Source: a virus. Taken from it: DNA of 64,000 nt. Shown piece after piece: positions 11,636 to 63,418 of the stretch (the first letter of the stretch is position 1; each line of letters starts with the position of its first letter). The notes beneath the pieces were generated by a model. That model ran no database searches, was not told the origin of the DNA, and saw nothing but the letters and a program-made list of their open reading frames with translations. The stretch covers positions 306 to 64,305 of IMG/VR virus record IMGVR_UViG_3300036802_000013, one strand, 5' to 3'. The translations under genes were made by a program, and so were the position numbers.

Positions 11636-11896
11636 ATGATAACATATACACTCGTATTAGTAGACAAAGCGAAAGAAGCTCGCAGACTAAACGCATTGTA
11701 TCGAGAGAGAACTACCGATACATTTCGAATCGAAGCCGTAGGGGTGGGCGAAGTTGTTCACGGAAGAAGGCACGGGGCGCAGCGACCTAACATGCTTATT
11801 GATATGATTCAAGAAGTTCCGCAGGGCTACCCACATTTCGAAGAGTGGTACGCTATGGTTAGGAGGGCGCTTTCACATGACGCAATCTATATGTAA
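11636..11896 (+). CDS. Hypothetical protein
   Basis: RBS GGGGA, coupled to the next ORF. Confidence 0.55.
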   Translation: MITYTLVLVDKAKEARRLNALYRERTTDTFRIEAVGVGEVVHGRRHGAQRPNMLIDMIQEVPQGYPHFEEWYAMVRRALSHDAIYM

Positions 11897-13944: not shown

Positions 13945-13973
13945 TTTACATTTACGCATACTGCGTATATAAT
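13945..13973 (+). promoter_or_regulatory. SigA promoter containing a TTACGC-N5-GCGTAT operator
   Basis: TTTACA-17-TATAAT with the palindrome in the spacer. Confidence 0.65.
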
Positions 13974-20237: not shown

Positions 20238-20296
20238 AACGGAGCGCTTCGGCGCTTCTTTTTTTTTATGCCTTAAAACTTTTTTAACGAATTGTG

Positions 20297-20436
20297 TTGA
20301 CATGTTCAACGTGTCAGTGTAATATAATAAGCGTAGGGTGCAACGAACACCACACAGGGCTATCGAAAGCCCGCTGCGTCATGGACATAGAAAAGCGCAG
20401 CACACAGTAAACTATAAACGAAAGAGGTAATCACAC
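20297..20436 (+). promoter_or_regulatory. SigA promoter with operator and long structured leader
   Basis: TTGACA-17-TAATAT; TGACA-N9-TGTCA; leader homologous to 7590-7684. Confidence 0.8.
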
Positions 20437-20934
20437 ATGAAATTTTCAATCACATTAGCAAACTTAGGAGTATACAACGAGGGCGAGTTACACGCAGAAA
20501 GCATTCTCTTCCCAGCAGAAACGAAAGAGGTTGCAGCAGCGTATAACCGAGTATCATATAGCGGAATGAATGACGTAATTATCATATCTGATAACGCACC
20601 ATTCGAAATTCACCAATACGAGCAGCTAGCAGTTTTAGAGCGTATCGGGAATCTCGACGAAGATACATACGAAGCATTCCTAATCCTAGCGAATCATATG
20701 TCACTTAACTTAGCTTGCGAAATGGCACGCCGCAATGAGTTTCGCATCTACCGAGAGGTGAAGGACGTAGGCGACGTAGCTTATCAAATTCTACAAGAAG
20801 ATGCAGACTTTCAAGAGCTGCCCGACTTCGTAAAACGTCACTTCGATTACGACGGATACGGCGAAGAGCTGGAAAGCGAATCTTCTTTCTATGAAGACTT
20901 TGCAAACGAAGCGCTTTTAGTAATTCATGATTAA
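20437..20934 (+). CDS. ardA: ArdA antirestriction protein (type I R-M DNA mimic)
   Basis: ANLG.YNEG.L, very acidic, ..HFDY..YG.EL C-terminus. Confidence 0.8.
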   Translation: MKFSITLANLGVYNEGELHAESILFPAETKEVAAAYNRVSYSGMNDVIIISDNAPFEIHQYEQLAVLERIGNLDEDTYEAFLILANHMSLNLACEMARRNEFRIYREVKDVGDVAYQILQEDADFQELPDFVKRHFDYDGYGEELESESSFYEDFANEALLVIHD

Positions 20935-25469: not shown

Positions 25470-26670
25470 TACTTTCGACTATACACGTTTTACCTTATTA
25501 GAAGCCTAAGGGAACGCCTATAAACGAATAGGGCGATATATGTAGCCGAATAAATGTGCGTTAAATGTACGGTAAATGTTCGGTATTAGCGCTATGTGTA
25601 TGAGCCTACATTTCTGTAATTATTACGCTATCATTTACGTTAATAATACGATCCTCTTTTAGCTAAATGATACGATAAATGATGCGTTAAATGTAGCGAT
25701 AATAGGCGTTACTCTAGCGCTCAATGTAAACAAATAAGATAGGTCGATAAATGTATGTTAACCAAGCGCTATAATGTACGCAGATAGGGCGGTATATATG
25801 ACCGCATATTATAGTATCTAGATATAGGGCGATACGTTGGGACAGTAGGGCGCACCATGTACGCATAGGGCTATAGGGTAGGGCGATATACCACGGCATG
25901 TATAGGCGGTATATGTGGGCGCTATGTGTACGGGCATACCGTTTACGTACGATTACAAATAGAAGGATTAACGGGAATGTATCGCAGGCTATTACCTACC
26001 GTTATGTGTGCGTTATGTGTACGCTGTGTCTATGCGGTATGTGTATGGGCTATGGGTATACGTGGGCGTACGGTATGTGGGTACGATGGTATGCGATGGT
26101 AGTACGTGGGTGTGTGGTGAGCGTGGTGTGTGCGTGAAGGATTACTATTCTATTTCATCTGCTCGCCGTCTCGCTGAGGAAGGACACTGAAACTCGGGGG
26201 GTCTTCGAAGTTGTCAAGTACTTTCTTTATGCAACATCTTATTCATTCGAAAGTATATTCAAGAAGTATAATGAACGTTGATATTAAAGCATTCTTCTTC
26301 GTGCATAAACGAATTGTAAATAAAGTATGAATGTAAAAGCGTCTCGAATCCTTTAACAGCAACGATTCAAGCGAATTGACGAATGAAACAAAAGGTCATT
26401 GTGTTGCATTCAGCATACAGAAAACTTGCATACTCATTCATCGAGCCAATCGAACCCGAAGCGAAAATGCCACGCCCCCCAAGCCACCACCACCAGCCCC
26501 CGCAACTGCTGTACGAAAACTACGCAATATATTTTCGAACTCGGGGCGTAACAGTCGATAATACCTGCCGCATACTCTCCGTAAACTCATACAGTCAACT
26601 TCGTTATACACTACGAAAGACACTACGAATACACTACGACACTCTCTCACTATACATTCAGCGCTAACAA
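25470..26670. repeat. Non-coding, strand-asymmetric short-repeat region (possible packaging or terminus region)
   Basis: TAAATG repeats ~25550-25700, TAGGGCG repeats 25530-25890, GT-rich 26000-26135, C/A-rich 26470-26650 with CACTACGA x3. Confidence 0.6.
26381..26411. other. Putative tyrosine-recombinase resolution site
   Basis: GAATGAAACAAA-aggtcat-TGTGTTGCATTC (12-7-12 imperfect dyad); matching half-site TTGTGTTACATTC at 28635-28647 near the recombinase promoter. Confidence 0.55.
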
Positions 26671-52126: not shown

Positions 52127-52237
52127 TTACGCAGTCAGCGGAAAATAGTTGTTGACATATTCAAATTGTCAGCGTAACATAGAAAACGTAGACAACGAGC
52201 TACACAGCGAAACTAAAAACGAAAGAGGTTATTAACT
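52127..52237 (+). promoter_or_regulatory. Operators, SigA promoter and conserved cassette leader
   Basis: TTACGC-N5-GCGGAA 52127; TTGACA-17-TAACAT; TGACA-N9-TGTCA; hairpin 52188-52203. Confidence 0.75.
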
Positions 52238-52687: not shown

Positions 52688-53065
52688 TTGACTTATACAA
52701 GCTATTAGTATATTATTAGGTTAGTTGTTAGTTACGCAACAAGCGGAACAACAAAAAGAAAAATAGCTCGCTAGTGATTGACGGTCACTATGATGCGAGC
52801 TAAATAACATAGACGTAACACAAAGCGCCTTGACAAGCGCTGAAAGAATCGTTTTGACGGACGATTCATAAAAATTATCTAACAACAATATACCATACAT
52901 ACGAACACGACGCAATATAGGTTTATTAAATATTACCATATTTTTTATGTGTCGATTCATGTACATTATTGGTACATTATAGTAGATAATTAAATACGCT
53001 TAATACGAGCGCTTTGTGTTGCCATCGAAAGGGAGATTCTTTTTATGTCAATTCAAGGCGCTTTT
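52688..53065. promoter_or_regulatory. rep leader with putative antisense or attenuation control
   Basis: TTGACT..TATTAT promoter; minus-oriented terminator 52753-52803; alternative pairings of 52817-52833 with 53009-53020 or 53054-53065. Confidence 0.5.
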
Positions 53066-54073
53066 TATATGAACGAATACGACGAGCTTAAACAGTTCGA
53101 AACGAAAGAGGAAATGAACGAATTAGTAAAGGCGGTACGTTACCACTTTGCAGACGAACTAAATACGACAGCATTAGCGGTACTAGATTACGTATCACAG
53201 TACGCAGTAACGGTTTTAGGAGTTGCTAAACTAAAAGTAAAAACTATCGCAGACGCTATCGGAAAGAGTGTGCGTACAATTAACTACGTAACAAAACGTC
53301 TACATGATCTATCTATTTTAACTAAGGTCGAAACGACTAGAAAAGTTAAAGGCGGAGACGGCGCAAACGTGTATGTAATTAACGCAAATTCTATCACTGA
53401 AAAGCAGGAAGTTGCAGAGGGTTTGCAGGGGGATTGCAGTGCGGGTATTGCAGTGCGACCAGTAAGCGAAACACCTACGGAGAGTAAGGCGGAAGAGGCG
53501 AAAGTGGAAAATGAAACTCTTTACTCTCTTAAACCCCTTCCTAAAACCCTTAATAAAACATTAAAAGATATCGAAAAGAATAATAATACTAATCTAGTTA
53601 AGAGTATAGAACTAGAGGACGAGCCATTATTCGCAGATACTAACAAGTTTTTACGAATCGCTTACGCTGGATTAACTAGCGTTGAAGGTAATCAAATTAC
53701 TAAAAGACTAGTAACAGCGTTCAAGAAGTCAGAGCTTTCTATGTCTACTAAGTGGACTCTACAAGAATACTGCGCACAAAACGAAGACTTTGCTAAAGAA
53801 CTAGGCGAGCGTGTAAGCCTATGTGTACGTAAACACCGTAACGGAGATATTGACACAACGTTATATGGCTATATCTATACAGCAGCAGTTAAATACTTTA
53901 AAGACCACGTAACGCTAGTAGAAGGCAAGCTAACGGAATCTAACGAAGAGGTAGACTTTATGGCATCACCGTTCACACAACGCATTCTAAGCGCTAAGAT
54001 TGAGCGCCCTGTATCATTCGTAGCACCTTTACATAGCACTATCGAAATCAATAACGACGAGTTACCGTGGTAA
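53045..54073 (+). CDS. Plasmid-type HTH replication initiator (Rep-like)
   Basis: wHTH TIADAIGKS.RTI....K.L ... G.GANVY; adjacent to parMR. Confidence 0.7.
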   Translation: MSIQGAFYMNEYDELKQFETKEEMNELVKAVRYHFADELNTTALAVLDYVSQYAVTVLGVAKLKVKTIADAIGKSVRTINYVTKRLHDLSILTKVETTRKVKGGDGANVYVINANSITEKQEVAEGLQGDCSAGIAVRPVSETPTESKAEEAKVENETLYSLKPLPKTLNKTLKDIEKNNNTNLVKSIELEDEPLFADTNKFLRIAYAGLTSVEGNQITKRLVTAFKKSELSMSTKWTLQEYCAQNEDFAKELGERVSLCVRKHRNGDIDTTLYGYIYTAAVKYFKDHVTLVEGKLTESNEEVDFMASPFTQRILSAKIERPVSFVAPLHSTIEINNDELPW

Positions 54074-61347: not shown

Positions 61348-61785
61348 CTATTCTTTTCCGTCCACTGACTCTCTATATAATTCGAGAACTCTACTATAGA
61401 AGTCGTCTTTCTCATCTTCGGTCAGCTTCGTTGTATTTTTGATATCATAAATCATGCGTAATACGTCCGCCCTTTCCGAGAGGTCTTCGACTACACTAAT
61501 TGGAGCTTTCTTGTATGCCGCCGCTAGTTCGCTTTCATCTATCCCGTATGCCTTCGCCATATCGTGCATAATTAGGGAGGATGGAGATTTTAAAGCACGT
61601 TCTACCTCGCTTAGAAACGTAAAGCTCATGCCTATGTGCATAGCCGCATCTTTAAGCGTCCACCCTTTCATGTCACGGGCGTTGCGCAAGAGTCGTGCTG
61701 GTGCTAAGTACTCGTCTTTCGGTGATAAGTCCGAGCTGCTTTTTCGTTTTTTACTTGCTTTTTTCTCTGCTTTTTCGTTTGTCAT
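61348..61785 (-). CDS. XRE/CI-like repressor
   Basis: LRNAR..KGWTL...A..IG.S..FLS.VER...SPS. Confidence 0.85.
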   Translation of the reverse strand: MTNEKAEKKASKKRKSSSDLSPKDEYLAPARLLRNARDMKGWTLKDAAMHIGMSFTFLSEVERALKSPSSLIMHDMAKAYGIDESELAAAYKKAPISVVEDLSERADVLRMIYDIKNTTKLTEDEKDDFYSRVLELYRESVDGKE

Positions 61786-61962
61786 AACAATTCACTCCTT
61801 TTATAATAATAGCCGAATCTCTCTAAACATTACAATGTCCAAATGATGGGATTCTTTACGCTGCTTGTGAAAAAAATAATGGTAAAATTGGTAAGACTTT
61901 CATAGTGAAAGATGTATGCACTACGCCTTTACAAAGGTTTCATAGTTTGTTACAATGAATAA

Positions 61963-62652
61963 TGTTAACTAGGTTACTAGTTTGTGATTTTTATTACGCA
62001 GTCAGCGGAAATAGTGACAAAATAAAAACTAGATACATAAGGCTAACCACCTAGTATTTAGCGGATATAATACGATATATAAAGTGAAAGTTGCGTGTAA
62101 CTCTAACCAAGTTATGCGTAACGTTTTGTGATCTATAATTCATTTATTTTTACATACGAAATTACATATTTAATACAATGGGAAAGTAGCGCCACCACAG
62201 CGCCACTCTCATAATGTTACACCGTTACACCACAACAGTACTTTGCTACAACTCACCACAAGTAAATAGCGAAAGCAGGCGTACACCACACGTCTATTTG
62301 CTTTCACCACAAAAGCGATAAGGACGTGTATTTTAAAAGCGACCTTCGGTACGCTTGTTTGAGTGTGCCTATTTGTGTATTACGGAAAAGGTTTGTCTAG
62401 CGTGTAAGCACTAAAATGTCGATATGGTATGCAGCGTTTAAATACGTGCGCCCATACGTGCCTTAAAGTACCTTACACTTCACATTATATACACAAGTCG
62501 TAATATTGTTAAGAGGAACGCCCGTTCTATTTGGTAATATTTACGCATCTTGCGTAATTTCCCCGTAATATTTGATCTATTTACTTCCAATTTTCGGAGG
62601 GTAAGCGAAGCGCTAGAACACTAGTGCTATCAACGCTTGCCCTCTTTTTTTT
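61963..62652 (+). ncRNA. Candidate multi-hairpin regulatory RNA or attenuator leader
   Basis: Promoter TTTACA-17-TACAAT (61928-61956); seven hairpins with ACCA-containing loops; cUUCGg hairpin; terminator 62597-62652; no long ORF. Confidence 0.6.
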
Positions 62653-62727
62653 GTCCTCTATTTCGCATGAAGCGGAAGTCTAAAAACTATTTTAAAAAAC
62701 TTTTTTAAAAAAGTACCAAACCCAGTA

Positions 62728-62756
62728 CCAAGATTTCTCGAACGCAGCGCCTAGAG
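62728..62756 (+). promoter_or_regulatory. Phage-specific promoter motif upstream of the sigma-like gene
   Basis: ccaa-N15-gcgcctagag. Confidence 0.7.
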
Positions 62757-62797
62757 ATACGAAGACACAACTACATAAACTTTCGGAGGTTATATAA

Positions 62798-63418
62798 ATG
62801 ACAAACTTAAATCAATTAGCAGTAGCAGCAAAAGAAAGCGAAATCGCATTATGGGAGATTAAAGCGCACTTCATGCCGCTAATCGAACGCTTAACATCAG
62901 ACAATTGGCACAAGATGAATAACGAAGTTAATTTTATGGACGACTGTTACCGTCGAATTGAATACGCAGTACGTTCTTACGACCCTATAAAGGGAGCGTT
63001 CGAAGGACGAGTACAGTCACTACTACAGCAAGGCATACGCCAATACTGCGGTAATCGAGGTGGAAAGCGTAAAGTACTAGATTCAATGGAGTATTTAGTA
63101 GAGCGCACGGTTAAGTCCGCTACTAAAGAAGGGAGTCCCGACCAGCTTACAGGGTTCGACGTTACATCGGAAGAGCAAAGCATAGAAGACCAAGTAATAG
63201 AAAACATAACGAGCGAAGAGTTAACGAAGAAGTACGGCGAGAACGACATGGACAAGCTAATACTCGAAATAATATTTAACGCAGATGAAGCGATTAACCA
63301 AAGTGAGATAACGAGAAAGCTAGCTGAAAAGACAGGGCGCACATTCGATAGCGCACGAGGCGCAGTACGCTCGTTCATAAAGAGAAAGAAAGCGCAGGTA
63401 ACTACTAATGCAGCTTAA
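62798..63418 (+). CDS. Phage sigma-factor-like protein
   Basis: Region-2-like A...YDP.KG.F.......I..Y; C-terminal HTH-like segment; 206 aa. Confidence 0.6.
   Translation: MTNLNQLAVAAKESEIALWEIKAHFMPLIERLTSDNWHKMNNEVNFMDDCYRRIEYAVRSYDPIKGAFEGRVQSLLQQGIRQYCGNRGGKRKVLDSMEYLVERTVKSATKEGSPDQLTGFDVTSEEQSIEDQVIENITSEELTKKYGENDMDKLILEIIFNADEAINQSEITRKLAEKTGRTFDSARGAVRSFIKRKKAQVTTNAA

Follow-up and report, generated by a model that had tools for sequence, protein, structure and literature searches.

What is carried by the 1,012 bp (61786-62797) that separate, in the IMG/VR virus record IMGVR_UViG_3300036802_000013, the gene of an XRE-type helix-turn-helix (HTH) repressor from the gene of a 206-aa sigma-factor-like protein? 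The window analyzed here (64,000 nt, positions 306 to 64,305 of the record) is a nearly complete 64,305-bp viral record carrying terminal repeats, with almost all genes on the plus strand. An earlier interpretation of this DNA from its letters alone (below, the sequence-only reading) had placed in the gap one long structured RNA with seven ACCA-containing hairpin loops, starting at a promoter and ending at a terminator in front of the sigma-like gene. This feature is genuine and is conserved, being a variant of the regulatory RNAs of phage switch regions, and it probably controls the lysis decision through RNA. The model of a single sponge RNA is supported only in part. The description that we tentatively adopt, with slightly less than an even chance of being correct, is that of a conserved non-coding lysis-lysogeny switch module of Group-2 plasmid prophages that is read from both strands.

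Invariant loops on changing stems

Both loop motifs are present in the window where they had been described, CACCACA on the plus strand at 62193, 62228, 62254, 62284, and 62305, and CTAACCA on the same strand at 62043 and 62103. All seven are hairpin loops in constrained folds, and the hairpin at 62103 indeed has a 13-bp stem with three G-U pairs (-14.7 kcal/mol on the plus strand against -4.8 on the minus strand). In the case of the cUUCGg hairpin the letters are found at 62344-62349, but the closing stem is poor and no counterpart is seen in the sequence of the related plasmid L011. CACCACA occurs in 11 copies in the 64-kb window, both strands counted, compared with a mean of 2.68 and a maximum of 8 in shuffled sequences, none of 100 reaching 11. 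The 692-nt stretch as a whole folds better than its shuffled versions (20 per strand), with z = -4.95 on the plus strand and z = -3.90 on the minus strand. It is also free of long open reading frames (ORFs), as had been stated for ~690 nt: among ORFs of at least 25 aa, none lying wholly within 61962-62590 exceeds 36 aa.

The module and its gene context recur in four plasmids of the Bacillus cereus group, found via synteny and a DNA pattern: B. thuringiensis HM-311 p2 (L011), B. mycoides pl62 (L012), B. mycoides KBAB4 pBWB403 (L013), and B. wiedmannii pBwiPL1-3 (L014). Together with the window they form five lineages of ~60-kb B. cereus-group plasmid prophages ("Group 2"). Close variants of three lineages are represented by the IMG/VR loci L015-L017 and L023-L027, the metagenome locus L021, and the partial locus L003, the latter being the one fragment obtained when viral contigs were searched with the XRE protein. 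Three of the four plasmids belong to the "Group 2" putative plasmid prophages of PMC8026635; the Group 2 section of that paper is silent on the switch, and its main text nowhere uses the terms sigma, repressor, or non-coding. These prophages have so far been described only at the level of gene maps. No small ORF preceded by a Shine-Dalgarno sequence recurs from one lineage to another.

In each lineage we can observe two to four YTAACCA hairpins (Y hairpins) and three common CACCAC(A/G) hairpins, H_A, H_B, and H_C, with one or two additional CACCAC hairpins in the window and L011. In all 31 motif instances of the five lineages the motif occupies the hairpin loop, a position reached by 26% of 2000 random 7-mers; for 21 of the 31 instances taken singly, P<=0.05. 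In the long alignment, which reaches from the promoter P+ as far as the LexA box, columns average 54% identity, with changes in the stems and none in the loop motifs. For the last Y hairpin, read on the plus strand, 87.5% of the alignment cells are paired and five of eight pairs are changed on both sides, whereas controls slid along the alignment reach 34-57% pairing. For H_A, read on the minus strand, 94% of the cells are paired and five of ten pairs are doubly changed. In neither case was any of 500 shuffles as good. RNAalifold applied to the long alignment independently predicts Y_first, Y_last, H_A, and H_B with compensatory changes in 25 of 51 pairs, and the Y1 hairpin of the window is among the structures predicted, with compensatory changes present. 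Two further elements behave similarly in the comparison with L011: the counterpart of hairpin H_x2 stays paired via three compensatory pairs, and the stem of the terminator T2 covaries.

The claim that identical loops on unrelated stems reflect selection on structure is therefore borne out, given five lineages with unchanged loops and covarying stems. Relatives with unconserved loops or with no stem covariation had been named beforehand as evidence that would count against it; the relatives show both conserved loops and covariation. Loops that stay constant while their stems drift clearly point to recognition by a conserved partner. The module matches no Rfam family: a search of 61700-62900 against Rfam release 15 at E<=10 yielded four weak matches, the top one with 19.5 bits against a gathering score of 76.1, and at the gathering threshold eight related loci gave a single tRNA, sited elsewhere. 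A blastn search of the intergenic region against phages gave no match.

Promoters, operators, and the strand that folds

The hairpins are bracketed by two promoter-like sequences that face each other ~520 nt apart, both of them consensus matches only (Table 1). P+, noted earlier at 61928-61956, is the top plus-strand promoter-like site in 5/5 loci (TTTACA-17-TATAAT with TG). The convergent minus-strand promoter, also proposed earlier, is present as P-, the top site of its strand in 5/5 loci (TTnnCA-17-TATAAT). In the alignment the -35 hexamer TTTACA of P+ and the -10 hexamer TATAAT of P- are invariant, the -10 region of P+ only partly so. By promoter consensus, the locus thus has the convergent promoters that characterize a cis-antisense (countertranscript) module.

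Table 1. Predicted features of the switch region and the two genes that flank it (window coordinates; energies in kcal/mol)
Feature	Position	Strand	Remarks
XRE-type HTH repressor gene, 145 aa	61348-61785	-	Pfam HTH_3 and HTH_31 only; PHROG transcriptional regulator
Proximal promoter-like site of XRE gene	61806-61835	-	TTGTAA-18-TATTAT; L011 counterpart TTGTAA-18-TATATT
Operator-like palindrome	61856-61872		1 mismatch
P+ promoter	61928-61956	+	TTTACA-17-TACAAT, extended TG; consensus match
Operator-like site downstream of P+	61994-62010		Exact match
Y1 hairpin	62029-62061	+	CTAACCA loop 62043-62049; -7.8 on plus, -4.1 on minus
Y2/t1 hairpin	62090-62127	+	CTAACCA loop 62103-62109, then GTTTTG; attenuator-like, flagged terminator-like
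A+T-rich spacer	62128-62181		Divides the two hairpin groups
H_A hairpin	62182-62210	-	Loop CACCACA on plus (62193-62199), UGUGGUG on minus
Extra CACCACA copy	62228-62234		Window only; weak hairpin, P=0.16; -2.8, minus strand only
H_B hairpin	62245-62270		TCACCACAAG core invariant in all lineages; loop 62254-62260
H_x2 hairpin	62277-62295	+	AGGCGT-ACACCAC-ACGTCT; only in window/L011 lineage; -9.5 on plus, -2.8 on minus
H_C hairpin	62298-62318		Loop CACCACA 62305-62311
P- promoter	62484-62512	-	TTAACA-17-TATAAT; faces P+; 11/12 matches
Putative Cheo/LexA-type box	62516-62527		GAAC-N4-GTTC; 3 nt from P- -35 hexamer
Operator palindrome	62541-62557		TTACGCATCTTGCGTAA; exact on both strands
T2 intrinsic terminator	62596-62653	+	Branched hairpin and T8; precedes sigma-like gene; -30.9
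Operator-like site after T2	62661-62677		Operator motif match
Sigma-factor-like gene, 206 aa	62798-63418	+	Label from predicted fold

Terminator-like elements occur on both strands. H_A is flagged as terminator-like on the minus strand in three of the five loci, and the T-run after the last Y hairpin ranges from strong (L012-L014) through moderate (window) to weak (L011). The relatives keep the layout of the spacer, in which a T-run leads to H_A, with an A-run in between in L012 and L014. The terminator before the sigma-like gene is as strong as had been described, with energies of -23.6 to -26.6 kcal/mol in all four other lineages. Given this strength, and with no sigma-A-type promoter detected in the stretch from T2 to the sigma-like gene of the window, some form of antitermination appears to be needed. 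The same interval holds a conserved A/T palindrome, CTTTTTTAAAAAAG-like, at 62690-62715 and at matching places in L012-L014, with GCGCCTAT(A/G) located 28-40 nt after it; this may be an unusual promoter or a binding site.

The GAAC-N4-GTTC box is the sole such box in the window. Its position is kept in all nine loci examined, and in the five lineages it lies 2-3 nt upstream of the P- -35 hexamer. Compared with the Cheo-box consensus CGAAC(N4)GTTCG, as used for B. thuringiensis in the Methods of PMC9700832, this putative LexA box matches in the eight core letters and differs in the two outer ones. A second repeated element is the palindrome TTWCGCA-N4-GCGKAA, which matches at seven sites in the window where 0.70 matches would be expected; four of the seven are within the switch (61856, 61994, 62541, and 62661), and repeated repressor operators are found in all five lineages. 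Judged by sequence, the four switch palindromes are likely operators of the XRE repressor. The copies outside the switch are at 13952-13968, 52127-52143, and 52732-52748. Since two of these adjoin the Rep/ParM plasmid module, the XRE repressor may also control plasmid replication genes.

The two classes of hairpins differ in the strand on which they fold better. In a count made by eye from a table of the pairings, the Y_last helices contain 12 G.T oppositions versus 1 A.C, and the helices of H_A to H_C contain 17 A.C versus 1 G.T. An A.C opposition on the plus strand corresponds to G.U on the minus strand. Folding energies follow a similar pattern. H_A, with a GC-rich 11-bp stem on the minus strand where it is flagged as terminator-like in the window, is more stable on that strand in 5/5 lineages, by 2.6-7.0 kcal/mol (-16.7 versus -10.1 in the window). 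H_B is more stable on the minus strand in three lineages and equal in two; H_C is more stable on the minus strand in three, equal in one, and prefers the plus strand by 2.9 kcal/mol in the window. Y_last is more stable on the plus strand in five of seven rows. Because H_A, H_B, and H_C are more stable on the minus strand and their interruptions are of the A.C type, a single plus-strand RNA showing seven ACCA loops, as proposed in the sequence-only reading, is doubtful: the motifs and loops are real on the plus strand, but the common CACCACA hairpins fit the minus strand better. The wobble pairs and the energies together suggest two convergent RNA units, a leader with an attenuator and a countertranscript linked to LexA.

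Readings of the module

Under the description adopted here, P+ would start the untranslated leader of an early operon, whose first 80-165 nt would carry two to four YUAACCA-capped hairpins, the last of them (Y2/t1 in the window) acting as an attenuator-like terminator. P-, abutting the LexA box, would make a countertranscript of ~300 nt (170-300 nt across the lineages) with three to five hairpins showing UGUGGUG loops and its 3' end at the GC-rich H_A. T2 would separate the module from the sigma-factor gene. Jointly, these parts may gate read-through from P+ into the sigma gene by attenuation or antitermination at t1 and T2, the leader and the countertranscript interacting as sense and antisense RNAs. 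The invariant loops could then serve to dock a conserved factor that acts in trans, be it a protein or an RNA of the host: a cis-antisense pair is complementary whatever its loops are, so loop invariance across drifted stems and operators calls for a conserved partner in trans. From this arrangement we infer the transcription of both units, the direction in which LexA acts, a binder of the loops, and the effect on sigma expression.

Several observations weigh against a reading from both strands. The trans factor that loop invariance demands was not found, and the transcription of either unit is inferred only. In the window and L011 the U-tract of H_A is poor. Only 4 nt of the Y loops are complementary to the H loops of the minus strand (ACCA with UGGU), for which reason kissing between them was judged weak. 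The strand evidence is mixed, with H_x2 (window, L011) and the H_C of the window preferring the plus strand and Y_first being ambiguous. Moreover, A and C are abundant on the plus strand of the H region (C/G of ~2 in 5/5 lineages); such a composition predisposes to A.C oppositions and so weakens the argument from strands, even though all interruptions of H_A are of this one type. Finally, two loci with sigma-like genes or remnants, L006 and L010, carry CACCAC motifs and a YTAACCA-capped terminator on one strand, an arrangement that fits a same-strand model better.

Such a model is provided by a single long leader from P+ to T2 that shows all seven ACCA loops to one RNA-binding factor. The factor could act as N does on boxB, the leader could work as put RNA or as a titrating sponge, and binding would decide the passage of t1 and T2; in a variant, the C-rich loops form a Rho-loading, rut-like patch. 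The very strong T2 in 5/5 lineages, with no sigma-A-type promoter behind it in the window, suits this explanation, as do the ACCA common to both loop classes on the plus strand, the C-rich and G-poor plus strand of the H region in 5/5 lineages, and the arrangement in L006 and L010, where two or three CACCAC motifs are followed on the gene strand by a terminator with a YTAACCA cap, adjacent or close to a sigma-like homologue. It also draws on the Y loop CUAACCA, which includes CUAACC, the loop of phage phi21 boxB to which N binds (PDB 1NYB; PMC12550061), although the loop of the module has 7 nt and that of phi21 boxB 6 nt. However, 4 of 15 H_A/H_B/H_C folds are at -1.8 kcal/mol or weaker on the plus strand, while on the minus strand all 15 are at -3.1 or better. 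The A.C interruptions of the H helices and the conserved P-, left without a role, speak against the single leader as well. No candidate binder, whether an N-like arginine-rich protein or another, came to light, and the stretch ahead of T2 encodes nothing. On balance we regard it as unlikely, with an appreciable residual chance.

The hairpins could alternatively act as single-stranded DNA, as priming or helicase-loading signals of a lytic origin like ssiA/ssiB of RSF1010. Here, hairpin groups on opposite strands would flank an A+T-rich unwinding spacer and be recognized by a DnaG-type primase or a helicase. The strand layout of the module fits this type: the Y group (plus) is left of the spacer and the H group (minus) right of it, a geometry that would prime outward leading strands. 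The module also adjoins the genes of a helicase loader, a DnaB-like helicase, and a toprim primase; the conservation of the primase among relatives (70-93% identity versus 38-56% for the sigma-like protein) matches the invariant loops; and G.T wobble is tolerated in DNA hairpins too. Against this stands a Rep/O-like initiator gene at 53045-54073, which with the ParM partition module in the same 53-55 kb stretch probably marks the replicon origin. In addition, the spacer is only ~25-31 nt long in L012-L014 and resembles back-to-back terminator tails (a T-run, then an A-run), two conserved facing promoters bracket the hairpins exactly, and L006 and L010 have YTAACCA hairpins with T-runs as well, in the 5' leader of a small gene that is remote from replication genes. 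An origin of this kind is improbable. Still less credence, hardly any, is due to CACCACA and YTAACCA as double-stranded sites (iterons or operators) for a DNA-binding protein, with incidental inverted repeats around them. The copies are direct repeats at irregular 21-60-bp spacing in a region full of protein-binding sites, and most CACCAC copies in L006 and L010 are not in hairpins; yet all 31 copies in the five lineages are flanked by covarying inverted repeats of unrelated sequence, and interruptions consisting of G.T only or A.C only make sense for single strands only.

A more specific extension of the two-strand switch is that the SOS signal reaches the prophage via a LexA-controlled non-coding RNA, and not via a protein antirepressor or a cleavable repressor. 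The P- RNA would then act as the inducer, its three to five identical UGUGGUG loops capturing either the early leader or a conserved host factor or RNA that recognizes ACCA or UGGU. We consider this rather improbable. One candidate target would be tRNA acceptor ends, since tRNAs usually have CACCA at their 3' ends and GUGGU forms the core of the T-box bulge. Elsewhere in the window, a Shine-Dalgarno sequence at 11856-11885 (TGGTTAGGAGGG, then ATG) overlaps with TGGTTAG, which is complementary to the CTAACCA loop; one such site is expected by chance. At 20290-20360 a near-consensus TTGACA...TATAAT promoter is followed ~25 nt later by CACCACA (20348) in the leader of a gene starting at 20437. 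As targets in trans these two sites were set aside, both being compatible with chance. A very G+T-rich segment at 26050-26140, with repeated GTGGGT, GGTATG, and GTACG units, holds the only minus-strand CACCACA of the window.

These elements define the architecture of the switch: a LexA box and facing promoters, a repressor in which no peptidase domain was detected, two classes of hairpins with invariant loops, and a sigma-like factor presumably gated by a terminator. The identity of the partner would show how a phage-plasmid couples DNA damage to a decision at the RNA level, and could reveal an antitermination or RNA-antirepressor mechanism in Gram-positive phages.

Neighbouring genes and distribution

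The genes around the module are arranged in the order DnaC-like loader, DnaB-like helicase, toprim primase, small membrane protein, and XRE repressor, the last on the minus strand and at the same position in L011-L014. In the XRE protein a Pfam search detected no peptidase (self-cleavage) domain. As only the HTH domain is seen, an input of DNA damage via host LexA is plausible, as in the tectivirus GIL01. The sigma-like protein has no Pfam match. Its AlphaFold2 model has two helical domains and a predicted local distance difference test (pLDDT) score of 73, and in a Foldseek comparison with PDB all 50 rows shown contain sigma factors, the best with E = 4.4e-3, a probability of 0.99, and a template modelling (TM) score of ~0.3. 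The label is therefore reasonable for this modelled fold but not proven. Its homologues number 38; GP52 of phage phi18-2, considered as a further relative, was rejected, there being no detectable similarity (E = 3.7).

In viral contigs, searches with the sigma-like protein alone and with the A1 profile found no locus. Seven loci in GTDB genomes hold sigma-like homologues, six of them (L004-L009) chromosomal homologues, while L010 retains a fragment of 30 residues only. In none of these six does an array lie upstream of the gene, and an extended L007 locus contained no further element. At two chromosomal B. cereus-group places, L006:5960-6140 and L010:1965-2100, two or three CACCAC(A/T) motifs followed by a long YTAACCA-capped terminator hairpin with a T-run lie on the gene strand immediately before the gene of a small membrane protein, in L006 with the sigma-like homologue and in L010 with its 30-residue remnant. 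Promoter scans around both elements gave chance levels. The corresponding H-H-Y pattern is not significant genome-wide (three matches versus four control matches in 71 genomes), but by our own estimate from the scan rate chance would hardly place two matches in the ~50 kb around sigma-like genes. The vicinity of these two matches to sigma-like genes favours a leader-binding protein acting on the same strand, and links the motifs to the sigma-like gene family.

A pattern scan of metagenomes gave five matches, four of which (L018, L019, L020, and L022) were dropped as chance occurrences in GC-rich coding DNA. At least 117 viral loci have three copies of CACCACA, and none of those listed is comparable to the module; the filter used, YTAACCA nearby or at least three copies in hairpins, was passed by 18 rows, mostly periodic repeats as in coding DNA. 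The combined signature of H_A and H_B is absent from all 71 B. cereus-group species genomes. Thus, the module was not found outside the Group-2 type, either in these 71 genomes or among the viral loci listed.

The slot itself holds another system in B. subtilis-group cousins. In these, namely phage phi18-2 (L149:6563-7873) and the B. paralicheniformis plasmid p1 (L150:6640-7884), which share the order of helicase, primase, and minus-strand HTH genes, an AimR arbitrium receptor lies between the minus-strand HTH genes and the next early gene. Since this is the place of the module, the slot seems to be an exchangeable decision module.

The chromosomal islands with sigma-like homologues contain two more elements. 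One is a conserved non-coding stretch of ~600 nt with many G+C-rich inverted repeats (L004:2800-3490 and matching stretches of L005-L008), located between an integrase gene and the sigma-like homologue; it may be a structured RNA, and at the gathering threshold no Rfam family was found for it in L004, L006, and L007. The other, on the minus strand at L004:5030-5125 and L005:3825-3910, is a hydrophobic ORF of ~29 aa that ends in KGKK, is preceded by GGTGGTG resembling a Shine-Dalgarno sequence, and is followed by a terminator. It adjoins the sigma-like homologue and looks like the gene of a type I toxin-like peptide.

Comparison with known systems

Repeated display of one short motif in the hairpin loops of a non-coding RNA is shared with the CsrB/RsmZ sponges, the analogy first suggested for this locus. 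It proved to be without basis: the loops of the module (CACCACA and CTAACCA, or UGUGGUG and UGGUUAG on the minus strand) contain no GGA, there are two to five copies per strand, and no CsrA-type partner or other binding protein was implicated. The oriV of RSF1010, with its single-strand initiation hairpins ssiA and ssiB, is similar in that hairpins of opposite strands lie close to an A+T-rich segment and in that primase and helicase are encoded by the replicon itself. The module differs in having several copies with conserved loops, bracketing promoters, T-runs, and a likely origin elsewhere.

The second analogy was with nut sites. As in lambdoid nut regions, a promoter-proximal hairpin lies in the untranslated leader of a putative early operon and faces strong terminators, and the phi21 boxB loop is contained in the Y loop. 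However, no N-type ORF is present between P+ and T2: in the window and L011 this interval has no ORF with a Shine-Dalgarno sequence, the rest of the genome not having been screened for arginine-rich motifs. The module further differs from phi21 boxB in the loop length given above, in having two to four copies, the last of them terminator-like, and in its Gram-positive host. We treat the resemblance in sequence as a lead only.

Another group of systems comprises switches with convergent promoters or countertranscripts, such as prgQ/prgX of pCF10, par of pAD1, pR/pL of phage 186, sar of P22, the CI RNA of P4, and the c4 RNA of P1. Like the module, these have facing promoters at a decision point, short structured RNAs that end at hairpins, loops as first contacts, and repeated short motifs that act on a leader. 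The Y loop begins with YUAA and so fits the YUNR U-turn pattern found in loops that mediate antisense recognition. In contrast, the module repeats one 7-nt loop on three to five unrelated stems and keeps it invariant across diverged lineages, and a LexA box abuts its putative countertranscript promoter; known cis-antisense pairs need no identical loops. An antitermination switch that would combine a LexA-controlled RNA inducer with boxB-like YUAACCA hairpins is not known to us from Bacillus phages, no literature search having been aimed at this point.

The closest parallel for the damage input is GIL01 of B. thuringiensis, in which host LexA controls the lytic switch according to PMC6182141 and PMC9700832. 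Both are plasmid-type prophages of the B. cereus group that have no damage-cleavable repressor and carry a Cheo-type LexA box in the switch. In GIL01, LexA binds just downstream of P1 with the help of gp7, whereas the putative LexA box of the module lies ~550 nt beyond P+ and adjoins, on the upstream side, the -35 hexamer of P-, the facing promoter, which appears to make a non-coding RNA.

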